Of a stretch of 64,000 nucleotides of DNA, positions 21,074 through 56,859 are shown piece after piece. This DNA comes from Strigamia acuminata (taxonomy: Eukaryota): the NCBI GenBank assembly GCA_949358305.1, contig OX442314.1, positions 1,178,001 through 1,242,000 on the forward strand, written 5' to 3'. A program made the position numbers and the translations under genes. How positions within the stretch are numbered: the first letter of the stretch is position 1; the number at the start of each line of letters is the position of its first letter. A model generated the notes under the pieces. The model was not told the DNA's origin. It was given only the letters and a program-made list of their open reading frames with translations, and searched no databases.

Positions 21074-21088
21074 CTGACGACTGCGCTC
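21034..21088 (+). promoter_or_regulatory. -1 frameshift signal G_GGA_AAC plus stem-loop
   Basis: Heptamer 21034-21040 in the gag frame; pol frame opens after TGA 21025-21027; CGCAGTCG pairs with CGACTGCG downstream. Confidence 0.8.
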
Positions 21089-21096
21089 TTACTATT

Positions 21097-27336: not shown

Positions 27337-27718
27337 AAACTTTATCACTTTTCAGCTTGATCAGCGTCATCACTTCCTTCAAGTTACATACAAGTAGATT
27401 ACAGAGCAATTCCATTAGCAATTCATGTCTCTTCTTGAGTAAACAAAGCCGATGTTAAACAATTAAAATTGCTATACCAATCGCCATTTTTGGTCGTTTC
27501 TTTTTTATTGTTTCGTTCGGTGTCTGGTTTTTCTTATGCCGAAGCAAAATGGCTGATTTGGACGACCGGACGGGTCATTCCCCGCTTATTGTTTGTTTAA
27601 CATTTCGAGGTTTGTTTATCTGTTGCTGCAGTAACTATTGTTGGAAATTAAAAAAATCAAAATATCTAAACGAATCAAACCAAAATTTTCCGTCGGAATA
27701 TCACCAGCGGGATCTAAA

Positions 27719-34683: not shown

Positions 34684-35115
34684 TGTGAAATCACACTCTT
34701 AATTTTGACTAAAAGTCCTTGGTTTGAAATGTAAATGTGTAGATGAAAATAAACGGAGACCTTCTCTTGAGTTGTTAAAAAGAACACTGGTGATTTTATT
34801 CTTAGACTAGAGAAAAAGGGGGGAAAAGGGTATGTGGAGCTCTCTGATTGGAGAGCGGAATTAATTGACCTCAATTAGCTGGTTCCAAGAAAGGTCAAGT
34901 GGAAGTTTAAGAAGTGAAGTTATAGGGTGAGAAGGTGGGGATTATAATTAAGTAAATAGGTGAAGTTTAAAGTGGAGATAAATGCAAATAATAAACACCA
35001 GATAAAATACAAAATGACAAAATGTTAAAATTGAACTTGCATGAATTAAATGGTAATAAAATGACAAATTGAACAACAATAAAACAATACATGAGTAAAA
35101 CCCTCGGTTTTCACA
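34684..35115 (-). repeat. 3' LTR of BEL/Pao element
   Basis: Direct repeat of 55899-56331. Confidence 0.95.
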
Positions 35116-37631
35116 CTGCCCCCGCAACTGAAGGTTGTATTTCCAAGTTCACGAGACGCTGGATGGGGCGCCTCAACTTGGTTCCGTCAGCGAGAACTAA
35201 TTCGCAAGAAAGAATTTTTCCATCTCTTCCCTCTCGAACCTCCGTAACGCGACCCATCTTCCATTGGAGGCGTGGTTTGAATTGTTCTTCCACAATGACG
35301 ACGTCATTCAACTTTAAGGTATTTTCACTCTCTTTGCCAAATTGGGTTTTCAAGTCGGTGAGGTATTCTTTACACCACCGTGTCCAAAACGAGAAAAGAG
35401 TTTTTTGTCGATAACGCCACTGCTTTACAAACTTCTCCTGAGTCGGCTCTTGAGTCGGTCAAATAACTGGCGTCCGGAAGCGAGGTGATTTTTTCTCCAG
35501 TTAAAAAGTGCGCTGGGGTGAGTGCTTCGGGCTCGTTGGGCGAATCATACACGTAAGTCATTGGTCTTCGATTGATGACGGCTTCGACTTGGGTGAGGAG
35601 TGTATTTAATTGGAAGAAATTGAGGGAAGCGGATCCAATAACTTTTTTCAAACTGGCTTTGACGGTTTTAACCATCCGCTCCCAGAATCCCCCTTGCCAC
35701 GGTGCATACTCCACAATAAATGTCCATTTTATGCCCTTGTTGCCTAAATAGGCACGAAACGAATTGTCTTTAGTATTTCTCAACAGGGCACTTAGTTCTT
35801 TGTCTGTTCGGTGAAAAGTTGTTCCATTGTCGCTGTAGATCTTTTTGGGAAGCCCTCTGCGGCTAATGAAGCGCTCAAATGCATCAATGAAATCTGGAGT
35901 GTTCAGTGAAGGAACCAATTCGAGGTGGACTGCTCTTATGTTGGCGCACGTAAAAAGCGCAATGTACGCTTTGGTTTTCCTTCCTCGAATGTATATAGGT
36001 CCAGCAAAGTCTATTCCAGTGACTGCAAATGGTTCGCAGCGAGTCACTCTGTCGAATGGTAGTGGGCCCGGTGTCTCTCTCATCAGTCGTCCTTGTATTC
36101 GCTTGCAGGTAACACATTTCTCCAAAATGGACTTCAAGGTTCTCCTTGCGGATGGCGTCCAGTAGGTCTCTCGAAAATATGATAGTGTTGCCGTGAGTCC
36201 GCAATGGAGAACCTGTGAGTGACAAAATGCAAGAATTAGTTTTGTTAAATTGTGTTTTGGGGGTAGGACAATTGGTTGGACTGTTGTGGTTTCATCTTCC
36301 GAGTTGTGCAGTCGAGTTCTCAGTCGCATAACTCCCTCATTGTCAAGAAATGGATTCATCGTCTGGATTTTTGAGTCCGATGTCAATTGCTTTCCGTCTT
36401 TCAATTGTTTCATTTCTATGCCGTATGCTTCGTGCTGTGCGGCGATGATCAATGATTGTTTCGCATGTTTGAGTTCCTCAGCTGTCAATGGGCCTTCTTT
36501 ACGTGTCTGCTTGTTGTTTGGTTTTGTATTGAAGCTGAAACGATGGCACCATGCTGTCACTCGACTGATTGTTGTAAACGAGCTGAAATTGTCAAAGCAA
36601 AAAAGTTTGTTATTTTCTTTTTGAATTGTTTTGACGTGGATTTCATCGATTTCTTCTGTTTCGGAATCGATGTGGAGTTCCATGACATCTTTTGGCCAGT
36701 CAATTGGTTCACTGTGTAGCCATCTTGGACCCTTCCACCATAATTCGTCTGCTATCAGTTCCTTGGCGTCTAAACCTCTCGTCAGTCGATCGGCTGGATT
36801 CTCGGCGCCGGGCACGTGTTTCCATGCATCAACGTGGGATTTTTCCCGAATTTCCATGACTCGGTTGTTGATGAACGTCGGTGCGCGCTTTGATGTGTTG
36901 GTGATCCAATGCAAACAGATCTGCGAATCGGTCCAGAAGTGGGTGGAACTGCACTCGACAACCTCGCGAATTTGATCGGCCAATCGCACTGCCAACAGAG
37001 CTCCAATGAGTTCTAACTTTGGAAGCGTCAGTGGTTTGACTGGGGCGACCCTAGATCGAGAGAAAATAAAAATTACATTTGTTAAATCTTCCCTTCGCCG
37101 TCGGAAATATGCGACTGCGCCATATGCTCTGGGGCTGGCGTCGCAGAACACGTGTAGTTCTGATTTTTCTTGGCCTTCCACTTCCAGGCATCGTGGAATT
37201 TTGAATTGCTTCAAAGTCGGTATTTGGTCGGCCCATTTTTTCCAGATTTGGCGCAGTTCCTCGATCAATTCTTCGTCCCATGGCAAGTTTCGAAGCCAAA
37301 GGGACTGAAAGAAAATTTTTGCTGTGATGGTGAATGGTCCAATGAATCCCAGCGGGTCGAATATTTGGGCTGTGGCTCGTATCACTTCTCGTTTGGTCAG
37401 TTTCTTTGGTGTGTTTACGGAGTCGTCGATGGCCAAGCTTAATTCGTCGGTTTGTGGATTCCATTGCAGTCCCAGTACCGTAGTGAGGCAATCGTTCGTT
37501 TTTTCAGCATCACCGGGTATTTCGCTTCGGAATTTGTCTCGCAACTCGGGTGAGTTGGTTTGCCACTTCACCAGCTCCATGCTAGCTGTTGAAAATATTG
37601 CGCGGGATTGGTGAAACACCCTCAAAGCTTG
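35111..37631 (-). pseudogene. BEL polyprotein C-terminal part (end of RT, Pao RNase H, integrase); frameshift near 35440
   Basis: LHVFCDAS, FWTDS, NPADRLTRG, GIDFAGP, SDNGTTF, GGFWER; QWRYRQ...FWTRWCKEYL continues in another frame. Confidence 0.9.
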
Positions 37632-37970
37632 TGTTGAGTTGTGCTGTAAACTTGTAGAAATAATGGCAAATGTAGTGGATTGGAAAAATGCATCAGGTGA
37701 AAGAAAAACACATCATTTTCACAGGTGTGAATCAAAACATCAAGTGAGCTTTATTCATTGGTCACATGACCTGTTGCATAAAGAGCCACCTGTTGGCGGC
37801 ATACAAACACTGTATGTAAACAATCAACGTGATTATTCACGTTGGCTAAATACAAGCAGCAATATTATACAATACGATAATACGATAAAGATATATATAC
37901 ACGCATATAAAGGGCAACTAATACATATGATATCTTAACAATCGGCCCCCTCGTATTATCCTGCTTCGCA

Positions 37971-38328
37971 TCAAACATGCAGAATGCTCAAATCGATTAA
38001 GAAACGATCGCAAAATTTCACTAAGTCAGTTTTATCGACTGACTTTGTAAAAATGTCCGCATGATTAGACTTCGTGCCCACGTGAAGAATTTGGAGATTA
38101 TCTCTTTTCACAAGCTCCCTTATAAAATGGTAACGGACATCAATGTGCTTTGTTTTCCTATTTTCAATACAAGACTTTGTAAAGTCTACTGTCGAAATGT
38201 TATCGCACATGACGTGATGAGGGAAATCATTTGCCAACGCAGGAGAAATTTCGTGCAGGACACGAACAATCCAGATATAGTCCTTAACAGTCTCTGTCAG
38301 GGCTACGTATTCTGCCTCCATCGTAGAC
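37971..38328 (-). pseudogene. Copia A RNase H C-terminal fragment
   Basis: STMEAEYVAL, CDN, TKHIDVRYHFIRE, ADIFTK; joins RNVTL at ~45250 once Copia B is removed. Confidence 0.92.
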
Positions 38329-38333
38329 AGTGT

Positions 38334-41300
38334 TGTTGGTTTGCGATGAATTATTTGCGATAATCATATTTGTTGTGCATTTCCGAGTAGGCACAATAAG
38401 CGCGTTACTTCATATATTGGTACGAATGGTCAGCCAGTTGATTCTGCTTTTTAAACTACGCTTGTTTCGTACTCCAACTGGCTGTGTCTATGTGATAACG
38501 CGCGTCCCGTCGTCTGCTTGTTAAGCGATGATCGTTTAATTTGGTTTGGTATTGTTTATCCATTACTTTAGTCTTTACGTTGTATTATTGTAAAGAATAA
38601 ATCTATTTGGTTATACTAATAGATTTGTTCTCGTTGTTACTCTGTAACCTTAGTTGAGATCAAATAGCCTCAACCCAGATCACTTGTTTTTATGCTTTCA
38701 TGGTGAATAAAGATGGCGGTCGCGTGTTGCGAACTAACCGCACTTTATAATCGGTTTGCAAGTTATTTCCGCATGCTCCAGGTCCAAATACGCTCTTCAA
38801 ATGGTAGCAGAGGATCGGCGACGACCAGCGCCGGCCAATTTTAGAAGAATTGAAGAGAAACGGACATTTTTCCGACTACGAGAAGTCGCAAAGTGCGCGC
38901 CCGCCCAATTCGTCGTGAAAACGAATTTTCGGTGCGGCAAACGTCTGGATTACGTGTGCGGACCATTCTGCAAAGGAATAGGATTCCAACGGTGTAAGGA
39001 ATATTTATTTCGAACGATTTAAACTGTATTTTTGCCGATATAACCGGGCTTTCTCGGGCGGCGCCATTTTTGTTGAGCTTCGCTGCAGAATACGGCGAAG
39101 TTAGTGTGTCTACGCGTGTGTACGGACCGGCACACGCACGCCCAACGATTCTACAACGGAATACGTCGACAGGACGGTATTTTGGAGCGAAGAAACGTCC
39201 CAAAACCGTCATTTTTTCGAGAAATCACCGTGAATCGACGATTTTGTTACGGCGGCCATTTTTCGTCAAAAATAGACGGAAAAACGACGATTTGATTCAC
39301 CGAGAAGTCCTGCACACGATAAGCGTGTGTGTGGGCAATTGTTTCCGTATCTCGCACCAGGAAAGCGAGTACGAAGGCGCAGACGGGCGCTACGACGATT
39401 TTCTCCGCGCTTACACGGATGTGTGTACGCGGATTGCACGTCAGCCGATTCCGTGCGAAGACAACGTGAAGCCGACGTTTAATCCAACGTGGGAACCAGT
39501 TACGACGCGTGGAACCCGTAACTGGCCAACTTCACATCAAAAACTGTATTTTTCGAATTTTTCTCGTGAAACTCTGTTATTTATTAAGGTTTTTGTGTTG
39601 GGTCACTTAGAATATTCTGTACCCTTCGGGCAGTCGCCCCAGTACAGTCTCATTCCAGTCTGGGCTTGTCCGTGGCCAACTAGTCGTCCCGCGTCCCCCA
39701 GGTGGGCCGGTCGGAAGCTAGTAGGGCGACCAGATTTGGGTTTTTCATCTCACTTATTGAGGTGCCCCCTTGGGAAGTGTAAAATTATTTCGCCTTCAAT
39801 TTTTGGGGGCAAATTGCTTCTCCGTGCGACATATTCACGTGTATTGTGAATATTTGTGTTTTTCTTCGGAAATTTTGTGATTTAGCGATTTGTGCGTCGT
39901 TTTTCGTCGAATTTTCTCAACATGGCAAGTTGGGATCGCCGGGACGACTATAAGGACGTGGAAAAATTGAATGGAACGAACTATTCGACGTGGAGTGTTC
40001 AAATCCAACTCCTTTTGCAATCATATGGAGTTTGGGGCCACGTGACTGGCAAGGAGAAGCCCTTGCCAGCCACGGCTTCTGCAAAAGAAGTTAGGGAGTT
40101 TGACAAGCGCGAGGAGAAAGCGCGCTCCACCATTTGTCTGGCTTGTGGAAAAGCCCAACAGGTAGTGGCTGTGGCACACGAAGGGGCCAAAGAGGTTTGG
40201 GAAGCGCTCAAAGCTGCTTACCAGCCCACTACCAGGGCACGCAAAGCCCGACTTCGTCGCGAATTTCTCATGTTGAAACTCCATGAGCAAGAGGAAATGA
40301 TGGTTTTCCTAGCCAGAGTCGACAGGAAGGCGCTGGAACTGAAAGACGTCAAAATAGACATTTCCGACGAATTCCTGGCCTTCCAGTACCTGGATCTGCT
40401 GCCACATCAATACGAAACGGTCAAGCAGACGGTCTACCACTGGGGAGACCCGGAATTCACCTCGAAGGCCGTCAAAGAACGTTTATTAGGCGAATATAAT
40501 CGCCTCTACGAGCAAACGGATGAATTTGGTGTTTCATTGGGCACAATTGAGAATACGGGTGCCTATTTCACCAAAGGCAGATGGCAACGTGGCCGGGGGG
40601 GAAATGCCCCCAGTTCTCCACGCGTCTGTTACAACTGTGGCGGAACAAATCACTTCGCCCGGGAATGCTCGTCCCCACCAAAACAGCAACAAGGTGCTAC
40701 GAGAGGAAACCCGACAGGACAGTTCAGCAGGGGCAGTCAACGAGGGAAGAGTCGTGGGAAGAGCCAGCAGACGGCCAACGTCACGCAAATGGACATTTTT
40801 GGCAATTCCCCGGTGTCTTATTTCTCCGCAGCGATTTGCCAAGAACAACCCCCTGTTGTAGTGTCTTTATTGTCGCATGCGAACTACGATTCGCAATGGT
40901 ACGTCGACACAGGTGCGACGGACCACTTTTCGTTCAACAAAACCTGGTTTTCGGACTTTAAACCATTGACTGGTTATTCTGTTCAACAAGGAGACGGAAA
41001 GTCGAAAATCGAAGGCATTGGAAATGTGACTTTAGTTTCGATTAATGGACAACAAACACGTGAACTAACGTTGAAAAACGTTTATTACGCACCCAACTTC
41101 AAAAAGAATTTGATTTCTTTAGGTCGTACGGATGAAGCTGGGGCGACAACCATTGTGAAGAATGGTAAAATGTTTATTTATGATGTGACAATTGATGACC
41201 CTTCTATCACTGCGATCCGTACGAGTGATAGGATGTACAAAGTCAATTGTCGCATTAATGCAAAGAATTCTGTAAACACTGTTGCATTGTCTGCGCAACA

Positions 41301-44300
41301 GAGTGCAACGGTGGCATCTAGTCCACCTTTAGCGGGTGAAGAAATTGTTAAATCTTTACTAACACACGTTGATTTTAGAACCGCATTAACCCAAAATTTG
41401 AGTAAATCAGGGAAACCTGTACCTGCGAGAAAGGGGCAAGCGAAAACTGCGAATACTGCGCCAGCGATCGTTGCAAACAATGCGAGTATGGAAATTTCGA
41501 ATCAACAATCGAGTGTTTTGACCGACACACAGTCTAGCTTAGTAGCCAGCAAGGGCAATAAGCCCAAGGATGCGAAAATTTTGAGAACAATTGTGCAAAA
41601 CAATTTAACAAATGGAAATGGGGTTGTAAATGGAAAGAATGCTTCCATTAAACCAGATAAACCCCAAACGATGGACATCTGGCACTCTCGTATGGGACAC
41701 CTTAATGCAAAGGGAATTGCATTGTTAAACAAATCTACTGAAGTGTTTGGTTTGAAGTTGTCCAACACGGAATTGTCGAGTTGTGATGCTTGTTCGAGGG
41801 CGAAAAGCACACGTGCCAGTTTTCCCCCCATTGCGACCATTTCGACCAAAGGGATTTTAGAAATCGTCCATTTAGACGTGTGGGGCCCTTCACCAGTTAA
41901 GAGCATAGGTGGGGCGTACTACTATTTGGTCATGGTCGATGACTTCTCACGATTGATGTGGATCGTGATTATGAAGAAAAAGAGCGAAGTTTTGGGCCAT
42001 TTTAAGAAGTGGTTAACCGAAATTGAAAGAACGACTTCTAGGAAAGTCAAGTCGATCAAAACTGACAATGGAGGGGAATTCGTATCCAAACAATGGGATG
42101 AATATGCCGGTAGCATTGGGCTGAAGTGTATGCGGACGAACGCATACAGCCCTGAGATGAACTCCATCGCTGAAAGAACGAACCGTACCATTCTCGGTGG
42201 AATTAGAGCTTTAATGATTGAAAATAGTCTTCCTTCATCCCTGTGGGCAGAACTCGCAGTTTCTGTCGTTTACTTAAAGAACCGGTTTCCGCATGCGGGA
42301 TTGGGTGGGAGGACACCTTATAATGTGTTTTTCAACAAGAAATTATCCCTACGACATGTCAAATGCATTGGTGCTTTGACTTATGTGCATATCCCTTCGC
42401 AGACAAGGGCTGGGAAGTTACAAGAGAGAGCATGGGCGGGGGCCTTAGTTGGATATGCCTCTTCCACCCGTGGTTATCGGATTTGGGATCCGAACAAAAA
42501 CCAAGTTTTTCTCTCAAAACACGTTAAAATTTTGGAACAGAATTTCTGGTACGAGAAAGTAAAGAATCCCCAATCTGGCCCATCACCTGCTACTGACGAT
42601 TCAGATTTATCAGGCGAAGAGTCTTGTAATGACTCTGACACAGACAGTGTTTATAGCGAACCTATCCCCGAGGAAGAGGTCAAAGTGGTTGAAAAACTCG
42701 TGGAGAGACCCATTCAGGCCAGACCACCTGGGGGACCCGACTATGTAGATGCCATGCAATACATCATTGGAGATATACATGGCCTAAATTTTGATGAAAT
42801 CGGTGGGGCGAAGGGGGATGATAGGGATTTCTTCAATATTTATCCCGACGACGATGAAGGAGAAGTTGAAGAGGAAGTTGAGGACCCAGATGCAAGCCCT
42901 CAATTGTCGCCCCAATCGTCACCCACACCCCCTCGTCGGAACCCGCCTAGAAAAGGGAAAGACACTGGCGAACGCACAGCTTCAACGAGTGACTTGTTGC
43001 CTCTAGATATGACTTTGTGGCAAAGACGGCAGACTGTACGTCAAAGCGGGGCAACAGCTGGGAAAGTTGATGTTTGGTACATCACACCAAAGCACGAGAA
43101 GCTCCGCAGCCGTGTTGAGGTTGTCCGTTGGTGCAAAGCCGAGGGATATGAATATAAATCGGAATTGTTTAACTTCAAAGATGTGACTATCGGTTTTGCT
43201 GGTTGCTGCTCTGTCGAGCCGGACACGTACGAAGAAGCGGTCAAAGGCGCCAGCAAACCTGATTGGGAAAACGCGATGGAAGACGAAATAAATATCTTCA
43301 AAGAGCGTGAGGTTTATGTCGAAGTCGACAAAGACCAAGTTAAAGACAAAACCTTATTGGGATCAAAATGGATATACAAGTTAAAAAGGGATCACACGGG
43401 TACGATTAGAAGATATCGTGCTCGTCTCGTTGCACAAGGCTTCAAGCAGAAGCCAGGCATTGACTTTACTGAGGTATTTTCCCCAGTAGTCAATTTTGTG
43501 TTAGTCATGATGTTCTTCTGTGTCTTAGTGGTACTGAGGGGCTGGCGTGACGTACACCTTGACATTAAGGCCGCATACCTATATGGGGACCTCGACGAAG
43601 TGCAATATATCCACATCCCAAAAGGATATCGAACGACTGAAAACCAACACAAATGTTGGGAATTGAGAAAGTCTCTTTACGGGCTTCATCAGTCTGGTCG
43701 TATGTGGTACCAGCGACTCCACGACCAGCTGATTGAAATTGGATTTGAACCGGTCTTGGGTCTCAATTGCGTGTATAGCTTGGGCACTGACGCTATACTT
43801 ATTTTCTATGTCGATGACATTGTATTGTTTTCAAAAGACAACATAGCAGAGGAGTGCGTTTTGGATTGGATTCAACAATCATTTGAGATTGTCAATTTGG
43901 GCCCCGTCACCCTTTTGTTAGGGATAGAGTTTTGTAGGGACGGGGAGAATATCTTTATTCATCAGCGCGCTTATATTGCAAAGTTGTGTAAGCAATATGG
44001 GATTGACTCTTGTCATCGAGTTAGAGTGCCTGGCACCCCGGGCACCATGATCCAAAAGGTTCAGACGGGGGAACGTGTCAATTCGAGTTTTCCGTATCGG
44101 TCTCTTGTCGGCAGTTTGCTTTTCATCGCAAGTCGTACAAGACCCGATATTTTGTTTTCGGTGATAGTGTTGTCTCAATACAACGAGACTCACTCGACTC
44201 GACACGTGAACATGCTGCTCCAAATCCTGCGATACTTGGGGAACACGCCAAATTTCTCTATCAACTTGGGAAACTGCCAAAGCGAAAATTTGACCGTTTA

Positions 44301-45249
44301 TACGGATGCGTCCTTCGCATTAGACCAGGACAAACGTCGAAGCTTTGGTGGGCACATCATCTACCTGGGAGGTGTCCCAATCTCATGGAACTGCCATAAG
44401 CAGACCATTACAGCACTTTCCATTATGGAAAGCGAATTTTTGGCGGTGGTCGATGGTGTAAAGGAGATAATTTGGTTGGAGCGCATATTTGGTGCGGATG
44501 TGATGATGGATGGGCTCAACCGGGAAATACCATGTGTTTACGCTGATTCAATGCCAGCGATCCAATATGCGAAGAATCGCATAGAAAATCGCGCAAACAA
44601 ACATATTGACGTTAAGTTGCATTTCGTGCGCGACTGGTTTGAAAAAGGTGTTTTTCGAATCAGACATATCCCGGGAACCCTTAATGTAGCCGACCTTATG
44701 ACCAAGTGGCTATCTCGCGCAAAACTAGATGCATTGTGCGAGCATATTTTTGTAGCGGCAAAGTAGTTCATCGAAGGGGGATTTGTTCGTTTGCGATGAA
44801 TTATTTGCGATAATCATATTTGTTGTGCATTTCCGAGTAGGCACAATAAGCGCGTTACTTCATATATTGGTACGAATGGTCAGCCAGTTGATTCTGCTTT
44901 TTAAACTACGCTTGTTTCGTACTCCAACTGGCTGTGTCTATGTGATAACGCGCGTCCCGTCGTCTGCTTGTTAAGCGATGATCGTTTAATTTGGTTTGGT
45001 ATTGTTTATCCATTACTTTAGTCTTTACGTTGTATTATTGTAAAGAATAAATCTATTTGGTTATACTAATAGATTTGTTCTCGTTGTTACTCTGTAACCT
45101 TAGTTGAGATCAAATAGCCTCAACCCAGATCACTTGTTTTTATGCTTTCATGGTGAATAAAGATGGCGGTCGCGTGTTGCGAACTAACCGCACTTTATAA
45201 TCGGTTTGCAAGTTATTTCCGCATGCTCCAGGTCCAAATACGCTCTTCA
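38334..45249 (+). mobile_element. Complete Ty1/Copia element B with MBD-like domain (potentially active)
   Basis: 466-bp LTRs 38334-38799 and 44784-45249 with one mismatch seen (position 5); AGTGT TSD; tRNA-iMet PBS TGGTAGCAGAGGAT at 38802; PPT GAAGGGGGA. Confidence 0.96.
39922..44766 (+). CDS. Copia B Gag-Pol polyprotein (Gag, CCHC, PR, IN, MBD-like, RT, RNase H), intact
   Basis: CYNCGGTNHFAREC, WYVDTGA, WHSRMGH, TDNGGEF, RARLVAQGF, YVDD, YTDAS, KHIDV; MBD-like segment at ~43000-43180. Confidence 0.95.
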   Translation: MASWDRRDDYKDVEKLNGTNYSTWSVQIQLLLQSYGVWGHVTGKEKPLPATASAKEVREFDKREEKARSTICLACGKAQQVVAVAHEGAKEVWEALKAAYQPTTRARKARLRREFLMLKLHEQEEMMVFLARVDRKALELKDVKIDISDEFLAFQYLDLLPHQYETVKQTVYHWGDPEFTSKAVKERLLGEYNRLYEQTDEFGVSLGTIENTGAYFTKGRWQRGRGGNAPSSPRVCYNCGGTNHFARECSSPPKQQQGATRGNPTGQFSRGSQRGKSRGKSQQTANVTQMDIFGNSPVSYFSAAICQEQPPVVVSLLSHANYDSQWYVDTGATDHFSFNKTWFSDFKPLTGYSVQQGDGKSKIEGIGNVTLVSINGQQTRELTLKNVYYAPNFKKNLISLGRTDEAGATTIVKNGKMFIYDVTIDDPSITAIRTSDRMYKVNCRINAKNSVNTVALSAQQSATVASSPPLAGEEIVKSLLTHVDFRTALTQNLSKSGKPVPARKGQAKTANTAPAIVANNASMEISNQQSSVLTDTQSSLVASKGNKPKDAKILRTIVQNNLTNGNGVVNGKNASIKPDKPQTMDIWHSRMGHLNAKGIALLNKSTEVFGLKLSNTELSSCDACSRAKSTRASFPPIATISTKGILEIVHLDVWGPSPVKSIGGAYYYLVMVDDFSRLMWIVIMKKKSEVLGHFKKWLTEIERTTSRKVKSIKTDNGGEFVSKQWDEYAGSIGLKCMRTNAYSPEMNSIAERTNRTILGGIRALMIENSLPSSLWAELAVSVVYLKNRFPHAGLGGRTPYNVFFNKKLSLRHVKCIGALTYVHIPSQTRAGKLQERAWAGALVGYASSTRGYRIWDPNKNQVFLSKHVKILEQNFWYEKVKNPQSGPSPATDDSDLSGEESCNDSDTDSVYSEPIPEEEVKVVEKLVERPIQARPPGGPDYVDAMQYIIGDIHGLNFDEIGGAKGDDRDFFNIYPDDDEGEVEEEVEDPDASPQLSPQSSPTPPRRNPPRKGKDTGERTASTSDLLPLDMTLWQRRQTVRQSGATAGKVDVWYITPKHEKLRSRVEVVRWCKAEGYEYKSELFNFKDVTIGFAGCCSVEPDTYEEAVKGASKPDWENAMEDEINIFKEREVYVEVDKDQVKDKTLLGSKWIYKLKRDHTGTIRRYRARLVAQGFKQKPGIDFTEVFSPVVNFVLVMMFFCVLVVLRGWRDVHLDIKAAYLYGDLDEVQYIHIPKGYRTTENQHKCWELRKSLYGLHQSGRMWYQRLHDQLIEIGFEPVLGLNCVYSLGTDAILIFYVDDIVLFSKDNIAEECVLDWIQQSFEIVNLGPVTLLLGIEFCRDGENIFIHQRAYIAKLCKQYGIDSCHRVRVPGTPGTMIQKVQTGERVNSSFPYRSLVGSLLFIASRTRPDILFSVIVLSQYNETHSTRHVNMLLQILRYLGNTPNFSINLGNCQSENLTVYTDASFALDQDKRRSFGGHIIYLGGVPISWNCHKQTITALSIMESEFLAVVDGVKEIIWLERIFGADVMMDGLNREIPCVYADSMPAIQYAKNRIENRANKHIDVKLHFVRDWFEKGVFRIRHIPGTLNVADLMTKWLSRAKLDALCEHIFVAAK

Positions 45250-48200
45250 AGTGTCACATTCCTTTGTTTGAATGTTCTCCAGTAAATGGGCGTACTGCCC
45301 AGTGTTATTAACGTTCCTCCAACGGAGATCCTGTCGTCTCTGTTGTTCGCGTAATCGGAGTCGCTGTACCCAATTATCTCGATCCGATTACTGGGGAACA
45401 ACATTAATCCATGACTTCTTGTTGTTCTCAGATAACTGAGTAGGTCCAGTAACGCAATCCAGTGATCCCATCCCGGATTCGATTGAAATTGGCTTAAGAT
45501 GTTAACCGCATAAGTCATGTCGGGCCTTGTTCTCGACGCGATAAAAGCCAGACATCCAAGTAAGCTTCGATATGGAATTCCTTCCATAATTTTGAATTCA
45601 TCGATCGTAGTCGGACAATCTTGTTTTGTGAGGATAGTTGCTTTCGTCATTGGTTGAGATCGAATTTTCACGTGTTCGAGGTGGTTCTTGAACTTCAACA
45701 ATACTTTGTTCACGTATGATCTTTGGTGAAGAATTAATTGTTGTTTGTATGAATGAAATTCTACTCCCAACAACTTCTTTGTTTGTCCGAGGATCACCAG
45801 GTCAAATTGCGTTCCGATCATATTGAGTATTTGCACCGCATGTTCGTGCTGCTTTCCGAAAACTACAATATCGTCAACGTAGACGATTAGATACGCGATA
45901 TCTCCGTACTTATAAACGCAATTGCACCAATTCACGTGCTCAAGTCCTAGTTTCAATAAAGTTTCCTCCAGTTCTATGCCCCATTCTCTTCCAGATTGGT
46001 GCAGTCCGTATATGGCTCGGAGGAGCTTGCAGACATAGTTCTCCTTGCCTTCGGAAATGAAACCTTTTGGCTGACGCATGTAGACAGTTTTATGCAATTT
46101 TGCGTAAAGATACGCACACTTGACGTCAGCTTGAATGTAAGACCATTTGAGCATACAAACGAGTAGCGTGAACATGAAGCGCACGATTGAAAAGTCCACC
46201 ACGGGTGAGAATGTCTCCTCATACGACTCGCCGTAGACTTGGAAGAAACCTTGCGCGACAAGTCTCGCCTTATAACGTGCGATTTCCCCCTCTTCATTCT
46301 GTTTGGTCGTATAAATCCATCTACAACCCACTATCTTAGTGTTGGGCGGTGGTGGAACGAGTTCCCAAACCTCGCGCTCATGCATGGTGTCTATCGCGTC
46401 GTTCATCGCTTGGCGCCATTCATTTCTTTCGGGTAAAGTCGCAATTTCCTCATAACGCACGGGTACGTAGACTTCTAGGTGATTGGCTTCGAAGTTGATA
46501 TTCATATCATCAAAGTCCACGTCAAGACTATCTGTCGTCGTATTCGATTCTGAGGGCTTTTTCTTCCTTTTGTCCTCAAACAGATGCTCAGGAACACGAA
46601 GATTGTGGTCGGCACAGTAACGCTTCACGTCAGGTATTGAGCGTAATTTGGGTTTGTCATAACCCTGGATCGTGTACTCGACATCCTTCTGTCCAGTTGG
46701 CCTGATCTTTTCTGTTTTCTTCCAAACTAGTGCAGGAATAGTTGGAACTGGATTCAAAAGTCCTTGTCCAGGTTGTGGCAAAGTGCCTTGCAACTTCACT
46801 TCTGGTCTAACATTTGGCAAATTGGTTTGAAGTTTCTCTTCAGGCAATCTAAACTTCAATTTGACTTGAGGTAATTCCAGTTGTGGGTCCTCTTCCTTCT
46901 TGACTGGTACTGGCGGGGGTAGTGGCGGCCTGACATCTTCATCCGAATAATATTGGCGCTCATTGTCATTATCTAAATTGTCGTCCAAATTATCGATGTA
47001 AGTCGTGTACTTTTCTGGTAAGCCCAGCACGCCTTCAACTCCGCGCCTGCTTTCTACGAACTTGACATCGCTTGTCTCGATTACTTTGGAAAATACTCGA
47101 TATCCTTTCGTGATTCTCGAATACCCGAGCATAATGCCATGCAGACTCTTGTTATCGATCTTGCCATCTCGAATTCTTTTCTGCACAAAGCATAAACTCC
47201 CGAATTTCCTCAAATGTCTAAGTGATGGTTTCCGTCCGTAGTACAATTCCATTGGCGTCTTGTCCGAATTCAGCTTTGCGATCCTGTTCCTGAGGTAGTT
47301 GAACGTCAGGATGGCTTCTCCCCAGAATCGATGTTCCAAGCCGGCATCGTAGACAAGCGCTCGCATCCCATTTGCTAATGTCTGGTTAAGTCTTTCGGAA
47401 ACGCCATTTTGGACAGGAGTGTACGCGTTAGTCCTTTCGTGGGCGATTCCTAGACCTTGGAGATACTCTCCAAACTTGTTTGAGCAGAACTCCATACCGT
47501 TATCCGTACGAATTGCGAGAACCGATTTCCCGAGCAATCGTTCTATTCGTTTCACGTGTTTTTGGAAAATGTCAAATACTTCGTCCTTCTTCTTCATTAA
47601 GTAGACTGTGGAATAACGAGAGAAGTCGTCCGTGATAGTTAAGAAGTATATGTTTCCCGAGAGTGTTGGTGTGCTAAATGCTCCACATACATCCATGTGT
47701 AGCAATTAGAGTGGCTCTGTCGATCTAATTCCTGGCAATGACTTATGAGAAATCGCTTTCTTCTTGGCTAATGTGCAAACATCGCATTGTGTGATTGGCA
47801 CATCCAAAATTGGCAATCCAATTACTGCACCTCTTTTGCTCATTGCTTGCACGCTTGGAAAATAGATGTGTCCGAGCCGCTCATGCCAAAGTCTTGCTTC
47901 CTCAGGATTAGACGCGCTCTTTGTTGTACTCTGTGTTGAAATAGTTGGCTCTTGTTTCTTTTGTTCGCCAACGTTCGCCTTGTTCTTCGCTTTTTGTCGT
48001 AACTTGTCAAAGTCTGGCTTCTGGTCGCTTAGTTTGATATAATATAAACGATCCTTCTTCACGCCTTCCATCAGCTGTCTCTTCCACTGAGGATCGTATA
48101 TCTTGACCAGTCCGGAGCCAACGGCGACTTTGCATCGTGCTTCGTCGATGCACGGTCCCGACAATAAATTTCTTCGCATGTCCGGCGCATAATAGACTTT

Positions 48201-49370
48201 CTTCAATGTGATTGGAATTGTCTCACTTCCAACCAAACACATCACGCAAACGTCCTCGACGCCCTGAATTTGAATCAAAGTTTTCTTATCCGCTTGACTT
48301 ATTGTCCCTGTGGTTTCCTTGAAGTTAAAGAATTGGTTCCTGTCTTTGCAGAAATGTCCAGTGGCCCCGGTGTCGTAGATCCAACAGTTGTTGGCTGCGC
48401 TGCACTGCAACATTTCTTCCTCGCTCAATTCGGTGAGAAAACCGACATCGAACATGTTTGTGTCCAATTCTTCCGCCGTATTTGTGTTCTGGCTGTTATT
48501 CGACGGTAATTGTGCTGTGCAATCCCTCGCCCAGTGGCCTGGTTGATTGCACCGGAAACACGGCCCCCGTGGTGATGATCCGGTCGTATTTCCTCTGAAA
48601 TTCCGCGAATTTTTGCCGCCTCGATAATTCGATTTGCCGCCCCTTTGTCCGCCTCGGCTGTTTTGGCTGCTGTTCCCTTGCTGTTGTTGGGATTTAGACG
48701 AATTGTCACTGTTCTTAGCGTTGGGGGAACTTGTTCCCATGTTGAATGCGTCCACAATTGGTCCTTGACCCAAATTCCTTCTTTGTTGCGCGAGTCTGCC
48801 CTCTTCGGCGACCAATTCTGCTTCAACTTTTTCCAACGTGAAGTCCTTATCCTCCCATCGATAAATGCTTTGAACAATGGACTGGTACTCTTGTGGCAGG
48901 TATCGAATGAGCTGAAACGCCTGATACAAGTTGTCTAAATCGTGTTTGACGTTGGCTAGTCGCTTCGCCGCATTGCGTATCTTCGCCGCGAATACGCCGA
49001 TCGTTTCCGTCGTCGGATCGTATTTAAGGCTGAAAAATTCGTCCAGCAGACGTATTATCCTCGCCCTCGAGACCGGTTTGAAGTTGGTTTTCAGCGTGTC
49101 CCACGCTGTTTTCGCATCCTCGGTCCCGCTGAGCAATTCGTGATATTGCTCTTCAATGGCGTAATAAATTAGGCTGAATGCTCGTCCCTTCCGTAGTTGA
49201 TAATCCGAACGATCTCGCCAAGATGCTCCCGGTGCCAGCGCTTCTTGTGTCCCGTCAGTGAATGCCCAACATCCGTGATGCATCAACAGCACTTTGATTT
49301 GCTGTTTCCAAGTGTCATAGTTTGTTCTGTTCAAAAGTGTTATTTTCCTTTCCGGTTTGTCCGTATCCAT
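45250..49370 (-). pseudogene. Copia A Gag-Pol with a premature TAA at 47706-47708
   Basis: CFRCNQPGHWARDC, WIYDTGA, WHERLGH, EPL*LLHMDVCG, TDNGMEF, KARLVAQGF, YVDD; MBD-like segment at ~46578-46730. Confidence 0.92.
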
Positions 49371-50055
49371 TGTGATTTAGGAAAACAATCTCTTCAAACT
49401 GCACACACACACACTTTTTCAGCAAAAACACTTTCAAAACGGTTACTCGTGAAAAATAGTGCAATTTCCACGAGGTTAGTGCGCTCTTAAGATTATGTTA
49501 GTGTCAATCCTATCACAGCACTAATCTAACAATTATATCAACAATATATTCCAAATAAATATCAATATCGATTATAAACAAAAGTTCTAGTCTTCTTGTG
49601 TTGTTTTCTCCTCGTTTTAGTGTCTTTTTCGCCTCGAAAATTCGTCCATTAAACTTTTCCGCGTCTTTCCAATCGTTTTTCGTCCGCAGCTCGTTCACAC
49701 TTCCCGTGTGGTTGCCGAGAGTCGTCGTCGTTACGTCTTCCTCGTTGAGTCGTTTTCTCGACGAAAGAATCAACGACACGTTGACAAAACGTATCGCGCC
49801 TCGCGATATTCGGAAAAATTGTCCGAAAATTGGAAAATTGAACTTATTAATGAAAAGTTTCGTAATGTTCGAACCCATTTATTGTTCCTGCGTCACTTGA
49901 TGGCCAATAATCGCTTGTTAAACCGTGGATGCTTGGCTGAGACACAGGTTGCTTCCATTCCTCATGGGCGCCGCCATCTTGGATTTGGAGGAGAAACGCC
50001 CTCTTTTTCACCTGTGGTTGACTTGGATTGTTTTTCAGTCACTCTGCACGTTTTA

Positions 50056-51687
50056 GATTAGAGATGGCAAGAGGTTTGTTCCTTTCGACAAGCAGTCATT
50101 TAGGGACAATTGTCCCTTTTTGTGCGACGAGGCGTCAAAAACGATTCGAAGTTTTGTTGTTAGTCTCTCGTCTTTGATTACGGGTCGATGGGGCATGTAG
50201 TAAACTGGTCCCTCGCTGGCATCTGGTGGTATTTCTTCTACGATTCCTTGCGCCAATTGATCGTCAATCACCTTTTTGTATTCCAGAAATAAATTCGGTT
50301 GCTTTCTGAAACGTCTAAGCAGGTTTAAAAATCTTTGTTCGGCAATTTGGTAATTGTCCTGTAATTCATTTGGGTTGACAGTCCATGGCAGCTCGACTGA
50401 ATAGTTTTTCCCATTCCATTTGATCGATTTTTCAAATTTTTCCAAAATTTCCGCGTCCTCCAGCGATGTGAGCGACTCGTGTTGCACCCCGATGGCTTCC
50501 AGTTCCCAGAATTTGCGTAGAATTTCGTCAGATGAGGGGACGATGCTAATTTTGTTTTGGTGGATTGGTGAAGCGATTACTTGCTTGCCGTGAGTAGTTC
50601 GTCCATGGAGTGTCCATCCTAGTTTGGTTTTCACGGCAATTAGGTTGTCTTCGATATATTCCGTCTGTCCCGTCATTAATTTCCAATAGTGGTCCACTCC
50701 TATTAAAATGTCAACTTCTTTTGAGTGAAGAGATGCTTGCCTGCATTGTACTTGAATCCCTCGTTTTTTTAATTCTGCATTCATTTGTGCATCTGGGACC
50801 TCAGTTGGAGTTGTTGTGACTTGAGGGACTTCTATGGCATCGATGGAGATGGCTGGACCCGCTCCATTTGCTGGTTGGATCGTCAGTTGGACTCGGTTGC
50901 ACGTCACGGATTGTGGATCTTTGCCAAAAACAGAAAGGTTAATTTTTTCAGTACCTAACTTCTTCAGTTTGAGTTTTCTGGCCACGTCCGATCGAATAAA
51001 CGTTCTCTGAGCTCCGCCATCGATATAACAGATGCTGGATGTGTTTAATTTGTCGCCACTCAATTTTGCCATGACAACCATCAAAAATTCGAATTGTTCT
51101 TGGCTGTTTTTTACCACGGCGTTGGAGCGAACCTCCTTGATGTTGGCTTCTTTGGTGTTTGCATTTTTTGGGGTGTCGCAAACTTGTGTGTGGTGCGCGC
51201 CCTCACATTTGAAGCACTTCATGTTGGTGCGACATTCTTCCGTCTTGTGCGCCACTTTGCCTAAGCAGCGCATGCAAATTCCCTTGGATTTTATTTTCTC
51301 CCTTCTTTGATCTGCGGTGAGAGGGCACAGACGACGGATGTGTTCCTTTGAGCTGCAAAACTGACATTTATCAATTATTACGGACATTGTTGATGCGGAA
51401 CTTGGATGGTGTTTCTTGTCTTTTCGATCCCATTTCCTTTTCTCCTCTTTATTTGGATTTTTGGTTTGTTGAGGTTGAGGTTTGGTTGGTGGGACGTCTG
51501 ATTTCTTCCGCATCATGTCATACTTCGCCTCTTTGGCTATGAAATTCTGCAGCCATGCCATTAGTCTCGGAACGGATCGATCTCCATCGTTCTCTCGGCC
51601 GTATTCCCGAATTAGGGTGCGGGGGAGCGTCGATGCTAACACTGGAAATAAGGTTTTTTGAATTTCAATTAATTTCACCCCCACATT
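50056..51687 (-). pseudogene. BEL polyprotein middle part (Gag Cys-His knuckles, protease, start of RT)
   Basis: Three Cys-His knuckles, YIDGGAQRTFI, FWELE, YMPH, KLRIVFDAS, SLNDCL. Confidence 0.9.
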
Positions 51688-51854
51688 AGTGAGTTTGCGG
51701 TTGCCAATTAATCCTTATAATTATGAGTTACAAATTATGAGTTATAAAAATGGACTTATAACATAACTTGCGGTACAAGTATAAATTATACTTATAAATA
51801 CCATGTGATCACACCATGTGACCACCACAAGTCACATTACATCATCAAACCAAA

Positions 51855-52978
51855 ATGGATGCCATTGCTATACTTACAGCTTTTGGTGAAGATGTGGAAG
51901 ATTTTATAATTGCAAAAGCTATAAGTAACTGTTTACGTGAAAAAGAACAACTGTATACACCACATTCCTTTGATATCATGTCTATTCCTGCAACAAATTT
52001 TCAATTTTTGTTCCGGTTTGACAGACCTGACATACTAGATTTGTTTAGAGTTCTTCAACTGCCAAATAAATTTGTGACAACAGACATGCATGTGATTGAT
52101 GGTAAGTTGTAAATTATTTGAATTACACTTAGAATACTTTATCTTTAAATGTATTTGGTTTTATTGTAGGAATTGCTGGGCTCTGCTTGTTGCTACGAAG
52201 GTTTGTATACCCAAACCGGTTGAAGGACTTGCAGAATTTGTTCGGTTTGCACTTTTCTTCGTTAAGCAAATTGCTGTTTACCATCACAACATTTGTGTAT
52301 GATAAGTGGGGTTGCAAACTACAAAATATGAATGAGAATTCTTGGTTCACCACTGATTTGCAAAAGGAAATGGCTGCTTTAGTCCAAAGGATGGGATCAC
52401 CACTTCACAACTGCATTGGTTTCATCGATGGCACAGCCCATGCCATTTGCAGACCATCACGCAATCAAAGAGAAGTGTATAGTGGTCACAAAAGAAACCA
52501 CTGTATTAAATTCCAAAATATTACCCTCCCAAACGGCATAATCCTGCATCTAAGTTTACCATTTCCAGGGCGACGACATGACGCTTTTATACTGCGAGAT
52601 ACAAATATATTGCATCAAATGGATATATTTGCTCCAGGATTTGTGTTGTATGGCGATGAGGGATATCCCTTACGGCGACAACTTATACGGCCATATAGCA
52701 ATTCACGGTTGACAAACGAACAGGTTGAATTCAATAAACGAATGTCTTCACTTCGTCAGTGCGTAGAATGGAGCTTCGGAAAAATTGCTCAGCAGTTTGC
52801 ATTTGTGGATTTTGAAAAAAACCAAAAGCTATACCTGCAACCAGTTGGCATGTATTACATTGTGGCAGCACTACTTACAAATGCACATACGTGTGTGTAT
52901 GGATCAACAACATCGACATATTTCAACATTGAAAGCACAGACTTGGAAGAATATTTCAGAATTGGTACTTTATTGTAA
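51855..52978 (+). CDS. DDE_Tnp_4/HARBI1-like transposase; exons 51855-52101 and 52170-52978
   Basis: GFIDGT, YSGHKRNH, GRRHDA, YGDEGYP, RQCVEWSFG; GT-AG intron restores GIAGLCLLLRRF. Confidence 0.9.
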
Positions 52979-53122
52979 ACACATTCTTTTTTTGAACATG
53001 TGAATTTGTTGATTTCAATAAATTGGTGAATAAAACGAAAAAAAAAATATCTTTCACTAAACACAAAAATAACACTAATACACTGAAATACTAACAAATT
53101 AACAAAATAAATATATTTTTAT

Positions 53123-54508
53123 TTATTTTTTATTTATGAGGGAAGTCAACATTGCTGTTGTTGCAACCTGATTCTGATTTTGCATTTCCCATTTTTTTTC
53201 CTCAAGATCTAAGCGCCTGTTATCCAGCTCTAACTGCTTGCGGCGCAATTCCAAATCTTCCTTCTTTAATTCAAATTCTTGGTCATGAATCTGTTGTTTT
53301 ACCCTCAACTCATCTTTAGATTTCTCAGCTAGATAACTCCATACTCCTTCATCTTGTTTTTGGGTACGTCTACGTTTTACAGCTGGCTTTGTATGTATTC
53401 TTTTCTGTTCTTGATCATCATCATCTGCCAATGAGGATGAGGATGACATCAACTCCTTCCTTTTTTGCATCTGGTCATCAATTACTACTTCTAGTATTTG
53501 ATCGGGATTTGATTCATCTTCGTTTTCTTCTATAACTCGGTTTCTACCGCTGGTCAAATTTCTCAAAGCAGCATTTCTTATTTCCTGCACCTGATCTGCT
53601 TCAACTTTTTTGTTTTTGGTAACATCTTTAGAACTCCGCCCAGGCTTTTGTAATTTCATCGCTGCCTCTAATTCCACCAATTGTAGATAATTGTCCCAAA
53701 CGGTCATCAATTGTTGCATTTTTGTGCCCCATGCGGTCTTAATTCGTTCGCGGCCGCTCTCAGTAGCTTCTTCAGAATCATACCGCTTAAAATCCACAAC
53801 TCCCTTTAGCATGTGTGTCTTCAATAACCGCACACTACAGGACTCAAATCTATAGCAAAAGAAAAAACAGAAATTTTTTAAAATAAAATATGTGTTCAAT
53901 TTGTAATGAAATAAAAGCTGGTTTTGCTGCACGAAATAAACGTTGAATTTATTTGCACTTGATTCGTTTTCTACTGGTGTCGTTTAAACACTAATTTTGT
54001 ACACATTTTCATTTGTTTGTTACAAAAATCTCAACTGTTCGACTACATATTTTGGTCGTATATCATCTATATTTTTATACATTGTTACAACAAAGCGCTG
54101 CATTGTATTATTATAAACGCGTACGTTTACTAATTAATTTAATTGCTTTTAAATACAAAATGTTCAACGTTTGATTGATTCACAACACGACAATATAAAA
54201 ATAAAATATTTTTAAGCACACTAATAAAAAGAGTATCTTAAAATTGATATATTTACATAAAAGTTGAAATGGAAGACTTTACAACAAAATGAAAACAACT
54301 TAAATTTCCACGTGCACCAGCTGAAACAACAACAATTCTTATTAAAAAAATCAATTTACCTTTTATTTTCGCAGATCAAATTAGATCTGACTTTTTCCCA
54401 CAATTCTGCCTCTGTGGATTCCACATCAAGACAGATGCAATTAAATAATTCTTCAATTGCTTGCAGATTTTCTTCCTCACAAAATCGAAATCGTTTACCT
54501 CCCGCCAT
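53123..54508 (-). CDS. Second transposon ORF, probable Myb/SANT-like DNA-binding protein with coiled-coil C-terminus; exons 54508-54360 and 53849-53123
   Basis: MAGGKRFRFCEEENLQ...LWEKVRSNL joins in phase to FESCSVRLL; convergent with the transposase. Confidence 0.7.
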
Positions 54509-54851
54509 TATTATTGCTGACAGTACAATTCCTTCACATGTAATGGAAGAACAAATCCCTATGCAAAAGAAAATAAAAATCTGTAATTTTACTAATTTGT
54601 CAGTTTTCAGACATGAAATTCTCTTCCAGTTTATTTATTTGCCTACCTGGAATGATTTTAGTTGTTTCTATCCTTTGATGACAGAAAGAAATTGTGTTTG
54701 AGACTGAATGTTGAAATAGGTCAGGCAGCCATTTTGAATTTCCATCAGCACTATCAGCGCCATTTGCAATTGTGGGAGGAGCTTCAAATAGTGTTAAGCG
54801 ATCTGATTGGCTCCCTTATTTTATAAAATAGTGTAAAAGTTGAGGAGTTAC

Positions 54852-55091
54852 GTTATGTTATAAGTCCATTTTTATAATTATGAGCTTGTAACTCATAATT
54901 ATAAGGATTAATTGGCAACCTCAAACTCACTGTTATGTTATAAGTCTATTTTTATAATTATGAGCTTGTAACTCATAATTATAAGGATTAATTGGCAACC
55001 TCAAACTCACTGTTATGTTATAAGTCCATTTTTATAATTATGAGCTTGTAACTCATAATTATAAGGAACAATTGGCAACCGCAAACTCACT
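54852..55091. repeat. Three tandem 80-bp copies of the transposon right end
   Basis: Units 54852-54931, 54932-55011, 55012-55091. Confidence 0.92.
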
Positions 55092-55823
55092 ATTGTCCAA
55101 GTTTTCTACGTTAATTTCAACATGACGATGTAAACGCTGCAGTCCTTCATTGTCACTCTCGTCACGCACTTGTGGCAAGCAAAGTAAATTGTTTAAATAT
55201 CTGTTCTCTAATACTACCGGATCGCCATATTTTTTCTTTAGCCGTTCTGTTGCAATCAGGAAATTTGCGTCGGTGATTTCCAATCCTTTTATGTCCTCCA
55301 ACGCCTCATCTGTCAGATGCGCTCGCAGATGAAGGAATTTATGCGTATCGTCAAGGTCGGCGTCGTCGTTCACTTGCAAACAAAACGTTTTCCAGAAGCT
55401 GCTCCAAATTTCCGGATGTTTGCCATCAAATTTTGGAATCTCGAGTGCCTTTCTTTTGAATTTGGCGGCGCCGTTCGTCGCGGGTGCATTGTTCACAACT
55501 GGCGGCAAAATAACAATTGGGTATAATTGATTTGAATACCTTTTTATAGCCGCTTTCAACACCAGCACTCGATCGTCCAAAGCGTCCATTTCCTCGGTGA
55601 GTGAGCTAACATCTGCGTCCGTTTTTGAGCTTTCTAAAGCTATTTCGAACGCTTTTGCTGCACGATTTTGTTTTGAATCCAATTGGTTGATCCATATTTC
55701 TAAAGTGTCCTTCAAGATGGCGGCGTTGCCGGTCAGCGCGGTGGTCGCCGTGTTGATTAGCGTTTCCGTGACTGTAATGGCCGCCGCAAAAGACTTCTTC
55801 TTAAAATCGTAATTTCTCACCAT
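55092..55823 (-). pseudogene. BEL Gag N-terminal part (DUF1759-like)
   Basis: IPKFDG...WSSFW...KFLHLRAHLTDEA...LKKKYG. Confidence 0.88.
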
Positions 55824-55898
55824 TTTCGGTAGTTTTAGATGATTCTAGCTGCAGATGTAGATGTAGATTCGAAGGTTTCCCGGGTTTTGGCACCAAAA

Positions 55899-56331
55899 TG
55901 TGAAATCACACTCTTAATTTTGACTAAAGTCCTTGGTTTGAAAAGTGTAAATTGTGTAGATGAAATAAAAGAAAACTTTCTCTTGAGTTGTTAAAAAGAA
56001 CACTGGTGGTTTTATTCTTAGACTAGAGAAAAAGGGGGGAAAAGGGTATGTGGAGCTCTCTGATTGGAGAGCGGAATTAATTGACCTCAATTAGCTGGTT
56101 CCAAGAAAGGTCAAGTGGAAGTTTAAGAAGTGAAGTTATAGGGTGAGAAGGTGGGGATTATAATTAAGTAAATAGGTGAAGTTTAAAGTGGAGATAAATG
56201 CAAATAATAAACACCAGATAAAATACAAAATGACAAAATGTTAAAATTGAACTTGCATGAATTAAATGGTAATAAAATGACAAATTGAACAACAATAAAA
56301 CAATACATGAGTAAAACCCTCGGTTTTCACA
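55899..56331 (-). repeat. 5' LTR of BEL/Pao element
   Basis: Adjacent to the PBS; followed by CTATG TSD. Confidence 0.95.
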
Positions 56332-56859
56332 CTATGTTTTCTGAACTTTTCAATTAAAATAGAAAAAAGCAGCAATCTTATTTTTAAAATCCAAATTAAA
56401 ATAAACAAATAAAAGCATAAATCAACGTTTTGAGTGTAACAATGCAAAACTTTTTAATGTCTGTTTAGTTAAATGTTTTTTCAGGTGATCACTTGAATGG
56501 TTGTTTTCCAATGTGAGTCAATAGATGTCTTTTTAAACTCCCATTATGATTGCAAGAATAATCACATAAATGGCACTTGAATGGATTTTCTCCTGTATGG
56601 GTTAATAGATGTAATTTTAAGGTCTCTTTTCGATTACTGGAATAATCACACAAATGGCACTTGAATGGTTTTTCTCCTGTGTGGGTTAATAGATGTCTTC
56701 TTAAACTCCCACTTCGATTGCAAGAATAATCACTCAAATGGCACTTGAATGGTTTTTCTCCGGTGTGAATTCGCATGTGGTCAGTCATGTTAGTTTTAAG
56801 TCGAAATGAAAGTGAACACATTTGAAATTTGAAAGGCTTTTCACCAGTGTGTTTAAGCA

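Follow-up and report, generated by a model that had tools for sequence, protein, structure and literature searches.

A divergent MBD-like domain in a centipede Copia polyprotein, with glutamate at the methyl-sensing tyrosine position

Two Copia elements in a transposon nest

The window (a stretch of 64,000 nucleotides from Strigamia acuminata, contig OX442314.1) is a transposon nest: Copia B lies within Copia A, which lies within a Bel/Pao element (Table 1). The Copia B insertion is very young, with 1 difference between its LTRs in 466 bp. Further copies were taken from three runs, X1, X2, and X3 (two studies, one of which may be the source of the window); X4 had next to no cover. The joint without Copia B (38328-45250) was found in contigs of X1, X2, and X3. 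The primer site of Copia B is TGGTAGCAGAG (38802-38812), which is the GalEa-type site and matches the 3' end of tRNA-Met (PMC3587641). There are no tRNA genes in the window.

Copia A is of the Ty1/Copia type, with the order gag-PR-IN-RT-RH and with RVT_2 present. Its RNase H is interrupted by the Copia B insertion, and the part beyond the insertion (37974..38330) has no Pfam RNase H match. This copy retains the 3' LTR alone, and there is no 5' LTR within the window. One contig of X1 links the end of the Copia A LTR (37632) to 50054 via 27 letters with a primer-site-like motif, so family A, as seen in this single contig, has a normal 5' end that was lost in this copy. The family A primer site, which we saw in one contig (X1), is GGTTATGGGCC, presumably the Drosophila copia type. 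Primer sites appear to differ between the two families. At 50054-50055, Copia A lacks its 5' LTR and its primer site, and the middle of the enclosing Bel/Pao reverse transcriptase is missing as well, as if a single deletion had taken all of these.

The LTRs of Copia A and Copia B were initially annotated as unrelated, and they are (as high a score was reached by 98 of 300 and by 294 of 300 shuffles). Distinct Copia families normally have different LTRs, so we do not take this as a sign of a special history.

Three Gypsy-like elements lie at 3-9719, 16607-27337, and 56860-61204, the last with gag only; in two of them the LTRs are identical (624 and 630 bp). A PIF/Harbinger-type transposon within the Bel/Pao element (51683-55097) encodes DDE_Tnp_4 and a convergent partner ORF, and a short derivative of this transposon's ends lies inside the first Gypsy-like element (5050-5660). 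Duplicated pieces of host genes, leucine-rich-repeat and F-box-like, are found at 28237-29109 (with weak Pfam LRR matches), 31346-32428, and 16209-16574.

Table 1. Features of the Copia A, Copia B, and Bel/Pao elements (window coordinates)
Feature	Position	Strand	Evidence or detail
Bel/Pao element enclosing Copia A	34684..56333	-	LTRs 34684-35117 and 55899-56333, 97.7%
Copia A 3' LTR	37632..37940	-	309 bp, TGTT...AACA ends, G-rich tract ahead
Copia A RNase H, second part, beyond the Copia B insertion	37974..38330	-	translation aligned by eye to RNase H of Copia B and T. clavipes
Copia B, complete	38334..45249	+	466-bp LTRs with 1 difference; 5-bp TSD AGTGT; one 1614-aa ORF
Copia B MBD, long loop, Trp at Tyr position	43018..43176	+	PF01429 E 5.9e-12; best PDB match MBD1, E 7.4e-8
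Copia A reverse transcriptase, plus RNase H (first part)	45255..46466	-	PF07727 E 1.3e-54; alignment
Copia A divergent MBD	46578..46730	-	translation; homology, fold, and language-model searches
Arg finger 2 and helix-capping Ser (R44-S45), kept	46638..46643	-	alignment
Glu at methyl-sensing Tyr position (Y34/Y36/MeCP2 Y123)	46677..46679	-	alignment
Asp holding finger 1 (D32/D34), kept	46683..46685	-	alignment; role from PMC3159451
Arg finger 1 (MBD1/3 R22, chicken MBD2 R24), kept	46701..46703	-	alignment; role from PMC3159451
Copia A integrase core and SH3-like domain	47046..47705	-	PF00665, PF25597
Copia A in-frame TAA within integrase, this copy	47706..47708	-	
Copia A gag, zinc knuckle, protease, integrase N-terminal part	47709..49370	-	Pfam PF14223, PF00098, PF22936, PF13976
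Copia A leader; 5' LTR and primer site missing in this copy	49371..50054	-	

Ancestry of the segment between integrase and reverse transcriptase

The initial annotation placed a divergent MBD-like peptide in Copia A at the position, between integrase and reverse transcriptase, where Copia B has its MBD. This placement is right. The peptide's frame begins at 46730, and the domain runs from Trp 46724 to Phe 46578 on the minus strand. A single stop-free ORF (47705-45213) contains it, along with rve (aa 2-97), SH3_retrovirus (aa 156-220), and RVT_2 (aa 445-673), so the segment shares an unbroken frame with the integrase core upstream and with the reverse transcriptase downstream. It lies 114 aa past the last integrase anchor motif and 87 aa ahead of the start of reverse transcriptase. 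The corresponding spacings are 165 and 67 aa in Copia B and 78 and 75 aa in a Copia element from the spider Trichonephila clavipes.

Copia elements with an MBD (CopiaMBD) were described by de Mendoza, Pflueger, and Lister in 2019 from one centipede and one spider genus (PMC6673714), where a match to Pfam PF01429 is the operational test. The Copia A segment has no match to PF01429, either at E 0.1 or at E 10, and a single-sequence phmmer search of the PDB found no MBD (there were two rows, both designed proteins). The Copia B domain passes both tests. We therefore file Copia A as a CopiaMBD variant by homology and not as a member by the Pfam test.

The homology was found by comparing the 76-aa segment to 1,835,955,588 proteins with phmmer. 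The single match was a Copia pol protein from T. clavipes (GFY16976.1; E 5.8e-8, 48.9 bits over three stretches). This E-value is inflated because the protein holds three repeated copies of the matched stretch. The stretch is at the same position between integrase and reverse transcriptase as in Copia A, and it matches PF01429 itself (E 0.02-0.03 per copy and 6.7e-11 for the three, with a single copy under the cut-off). The Copia A and T. clavipes domains are 40.5% identical, and none of 5,000 shuffles was as high. Similarly, Copia A and Copia B are 28% identical over 57 aa in this region (pairwise E 4e-5), with a score that was reached by none of 5,000 shuffles. When a profile of Copia A and T. 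clavipes, with Copia B left out, was compared to the PDB, MBD2 took the first four of 14 rows (E 0.019-0.054). Word-indexed protein searches, which are limited by shared words and by length, gave 74 candidates for the Copia A region and 21 for the Copia B region, with nothing at E 0.01, and locus searches in viral contigs found no relatives.

The predicted structure and a protein language model agree with the homology. From the single sequence, AlphaFold predicted a hairpin, a strand, and a helix (pLDDT 76.7), and supplying a 3-row alignment for a second model brought no improvement (pLDDT 73.7). As modeled, the domain would have the beta-sheet finger followed by a helix that characterizes the MBD fold. 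Foldseek placed MBDs in 20 of the first 24 rows, with no row at E <= 0.001 for either model. In VIA, a wide search gave MBDs in four of the first five rows, and in a second look the first 23 rows were all of the MBD family (Z 3.0-4.1). The best VIA row (Z 4.1) was SETDB2 (8hfp; rmsd 3.2, 55 aligned), but in the wide search an unrelated protein, a ribosomal protein of the chloroplast, is level with it (Z 4.0). In the ESM Atlas, the first two clusters were MBDs, with a score of 0.89 and 199 of 256 and 190 of 256 features shared; this score, under 0.9, is lead-level, and the recognition value of 2116 is below the 2300 mark. Chromodomain, dsRBD, and PSRP-3 also appear in the fold lists, at 0-17% identity and without sequence support, and we rejected them as the identity of the segment.

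Might the segment instead be an ordinary linker between integrase and reverse transcriptase, or a decayed remnant, that looks like an MBD by chance? The failed Pfam and PDB sequence tests would fit such a linker, as would the weakness of each fold score taken individually. Nevertheless, sequence, profile, fold, and language-model tests all indicate an MBD; the position is shared with the Pfam-positive MBDs of Copia B and T. clavipes; and there is a strong excess of silent differences among copies (described below). These results already largely refute the idea, and we consider it very improbable. Rather, we are confident that the segment derives from an MBD: the separate tests are weak but they concur, and the position and the motif agree with them. 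The segment does lie between integrase and reverse transcriptase and is homologous to the MBD of the T. clavipes Copia. Where the initial annotation looked to profiles and structures to decide the matter, then, the Pfam profile failed, while fold searches ranked MBDs first with weak scores. Screens that rely on Pfam will miss such domains, so the range of CopiaMBD is probably underestimated.

The binding face and its maintenance

In chicken MBD2, the bases are contacted by Arg24, Tyr36, and Arg46, and Asp34 holds Arg24 in place; the arginine fingers and the aspartate read mCpG (PMC3159451). By alignment, Copia A keeps both fingers and the aspartate, as in the methyl-CpG-binding MBDs (MBD1/2/4 and MeCP2), but it lacks their tyrosine (Tyr34/36/123) and their long loop L1. 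At the tyrosine's position, two residues past the aspartate and on the same predicted strand, Copia A has glutamate. In this copy of Copia B, the residue is tryptophan (for the family as a whole, 40 of 1714 differences were listed). The initial annotation gave the common core of the two domains as W/R/DV.Y/KLRS. Here "DV.Y" hides the main difference between them, as the variable residue is Glu in Copia A, Trp in Copia B, and Tyr in canonical MBDs.

The loop after the first arginine is shorter than in Copia B, as had been claimed: counting by eye, it is four residues short of the loop in Copia B and in MBD2, and the turn that follows has two extra residues. Copia A also has Gln in place of the Lys that lies two residues before the aspartate, and a loop serine that helps to fix finger 1 (bioRxiv 10.1101/338061) falls in the lost stretch. 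For these two reasons, binding by Copia A may be very weak. In chicken MBD2, the K32A substitution raises the KD to 291 uM, and Y36F raises it from 2.1 to 109 uM, or about 50-fold (PMC3159451). Yet the tyrosine is not strictly required: MBD3, which has phenylalanine instead, still binds mCG, about 10-fold more weakly than its Tyr form does (bioRxiv 10.1101/338061). AtMBD5 is a similar predicted case (PMC8811898).

Copies from the three runs indicate that the domain is maintained. Contigs on the 181-bp stretch of the Copia A MBD numbered 92 in X1, 97 in X2, and 53 in X3, and most were less than 90% identical. The listed differences (40 of 73) cover 46590-46710. Among these 40, 33 are silent and 7 change an amino acid; 34 are at third positions; and there are no indels. 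A silent share of 22-30% would be expected, so the excess is highly significant (p <= 1.3e-11), with pN/pS of about 0.06-0.09. Among the same 40 of 73 differences, the seven amino-acid changes spare R8, D14, E16, Y17, R28, and S29, and none of the 40 is in the codon for the glutamate (46677..46679). As judged from these 40 differences, the MBD of Copia A is under purifying selection, and because silent differences are in excess and the binding face is spared, the glutamate and the short loop look like traits of the family rather than decay.

The domain might instead have kept the MBD fold but no longer bind DNA, serving the polyprotein as a structural module or by binding other proteins. The top VIA row is an MBD, that of SETDB2, bound to a protein partner; the glutamate would put an acidic residue on the DNA face; and the lineage tolerates the loss of DNA-reading residues, as T. 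clavipes has Asn in place of the aspartate and Lys in place of finger 2. On the other hand, the top VIA rows all fall within 1 Z of one another, Copia A is 13% identical to SETDB2 as compared to 29-39% for MBD2, and the DNA-reading Arg, Asp, and Arg are kept in Copia A. We think that a protein module is quite unlikely.

Relatives and a possible role in integration

Much of what we see in Copia A was already known from PMC6673714, namely the architecture of CopiaMBD, the short loop, and the coexistence of lineages in Strigamia. There, clades A-H of the Strigamia CopiaMBDs coexist in one genome; a single origin is given for CopiaMBD; and "most" copies are said to keep the methyl-recognition tyrosine. 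The six Stegodyphus CopiaMBD rows of S3 resemble Copia A: the MBD is between integrase and reverse transcriptase in the pol ORF and, by eye, the short first loop begins Arg-Pro-x-Gly and strand 4 and the helix have the same pattern of Arg-Ser, Asp, and Tyr-Cys. The short first loop, being common to all six rows, is the mark of a lineage rather than something peculiar to Copia A, and we rejected the idea that it is new. Unlike Copia A, all six have Tyr and not Glu, and their loop is missing three residues rather than four. The tyrosine, two residues past the conserved aspartate position, is present in all 22 CopiaMBD rows of S3, and no row among those listed in S3 has glutamate there (PMC6673714).

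DAP-seq of three Strigamia CopiaMBDs (CopiaMBD 1-3), which are 46% identical, showed that each of them binds natively methylated DNA (PMC6673714). They share with Copia A the architecture, the arginine fingers, and the aspartate, but in all three of them the loop is long and the tyrosine is present. Copia B is like them in the length of its loop, which is the long, ancestral type, but has Trp for Tyr. Among host proteins, MBD3, MBD2, the BAZ2 TAM domain, and the SETDB MBDs are similar to Copia A in predicted fold, and MBD3 is a precedent for arginine fingers without the tyrosine; unlike these proteins, Copia A is without silencing-complex domains and is within a retrotransposon polyprotein. 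What is new here, as read from aligned residues, is that the arginine fingers and the aspartate are kept while the methyl-sensing tyrosine is replaced, by Glu in Copia A and by Trp in Copia B. We found no further description of a CopiaMBD family, of copies without the tyrosine, or of a genome that has loops of both types in the literature that we covered, which was outside subscription journals.

The closest sequence relative that we found is the T. clavipes Copia pol. Its domain position and short loop are as in Copia A, but it keeps the tyrosine and differs at the aspartate and finger 2, as described above. Copia A is closer to T. clavipes (reverse transcriptase 51% [50.6], integrase 49%, and MBD 40% identical) than to Copia B (41% [40.6], 37%, and 32%), so we assign it to the spider-type short-loop lineage. 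Comparing reverse transcriptases, which the initial annotation had suggested, leads to the same grouping: in a four-taxon tree (170 columns), Copia A pairs with T. clavipes and away from Copia B, with 98% bootstrap. The fourth taxon is an MBD-less Copia from a scan of metagenomes, where two identical loci have a short spacer between integrase and reverse transcriptase and no MBD was seen in it. The reverse transcriptase of Copia B is hardly closer to that of Copia A (40.6%) than the one in the MBD-less Copia is (38.8-40.0%), and the primer sites differ, so the split between Copia A and Copia B is very old. The initial claim that two long-diverged MBD-Copia lineages coexist is borne out by these identities, but it was overstated in that coexistence was already published (PMC6673714). 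A reverse transcriptase motif at 45900-45935 is GLHQ in Copia A, Copia B, and T. clavipes and GLKQ in the MBD-less Copia; judging from these four sequences, the histidine is possibly a clade marker.

T. clavipes has 355 matches in all, with at least 120 near-identical Copia proteins that carry the degenerate MBD. Of the 120 listed, two have a precomputed PF01429 match, and the MBD is unmentioned in the proteins' database names. This species thus carries hundreds of unlabelled copies, even though Nephila clavipes was among the genomes scanned in PMC6673714.

The initial annotation attributed a possible change of methyl specificity to the altered loop. A changed specificity is plausible given the residues at the binding face, but the replacement of Tyr by Glu is a better reason to expect it than the short loop is. 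We propose, at about even odds, that Copia A carries a conserved spider-type MBD in pol that docks on CpG, with weaker affinity and methyl preference than the centipede CopiaMBDs, and steers integration. By analogy to other MBDs, the domain would dock through its two arginines, and its affinity and methyl selectivity would both be lower than in the centipede CopiaMBDs. It would act as the C-terminal end of integrase or within the same particle, and integration would be steered toward CpG-rich or methylated DNA, as PMC6673714 suggests for CopiaMBDs on evidence that is itself indirect. Several observations count against this proposal: the glutamate is acidic and would face the DNA, the changes at the Lys and in the loop may leave binding very weak, and in the window we saw neither a methylation footprint nor CpG-rich flanks at insertion sites (figures below).

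PMC6673714 argues that the fate of a CopiaMBD depends on the methylation of its host. CpG is not depleted in the window (observed/expected 1.13). In nine pairs of repeats, CpG-class transitions (41 of 231, or 18%) were about as common as those at other C/G sites (153 of 886, or 17%; p 0.85), and the GpC control gave 27 of 246 (11%). By these two measures, the repeats in the window have no signature of CpG decay, which suggests little germline methylation of repeats. Spiders likewise leave transposons unmethylated, and their CopiaMBDs gather in methylated gene bodies (PMC6673714); exon methylation is kept by most arthropods (PMC7343188).

Methyl selectivity may instead have been lost altogether, in which case the domain would anchor the integration complex on CpG that is unmethylated, or on DNA or nucleosomes generally, as with the BAZ2 and SETDB groups of MBDs. 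The lack of CpG decay in the window's repeats would fit this; the tyrosine is also absent from the BAZ2 and SETDB rows of S3, which are called not methyl-binding (PMC6673714); it is missing from both CopiaMBDs in the window; and the Copia A domain is basic (11 K+R and 7 D+E). However, the core that reads mCpG (both arginine fingers and the aspartate) is kept and is unchanged among the 40 of 73 differences listed, and MBD3 still prefers mCG without the tyrosine (bioRxiv 10.1101/338061). Also, the CopiaMBDs of spiders gather in methylated gene bodies despite the unmethylated transposons there, and exon methylation of the arthropod kind (PMC7343188) would not show in a window that is filled with repeats. 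Overall, we consider a complete loss of methyl selectivity to be somewhat unlikely, and we prefer a weakened reader of CpG.

A broader scenario, which we view as more doubtful still, is that two anciently split CopiaMBD lineages, a spider-type one with the short loop and a centipede-like one with the long loop and the other type of primer site, each dropped the tyrosine and shifted the captured methyl reader toward CpG without methylation or some other mark, in step with a genome that lacks CpG decay in its repeats. At the limit of this scenario, both lineages would have captured or swapped their MBDs separately, against the published single origin (PMC6673714). In any case, the presence in one genome of a spider-type lineage and a long-loop lineage, each in multiple copies and each lacking the tyrosine, provides a natural experiment on the adaptation of a stolen epigenetic reader. 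At the insertion sites in the window, the flanks have 8, 10, and 9 CpG per 150 bp, as compared to a window median of 8; these are single sites.
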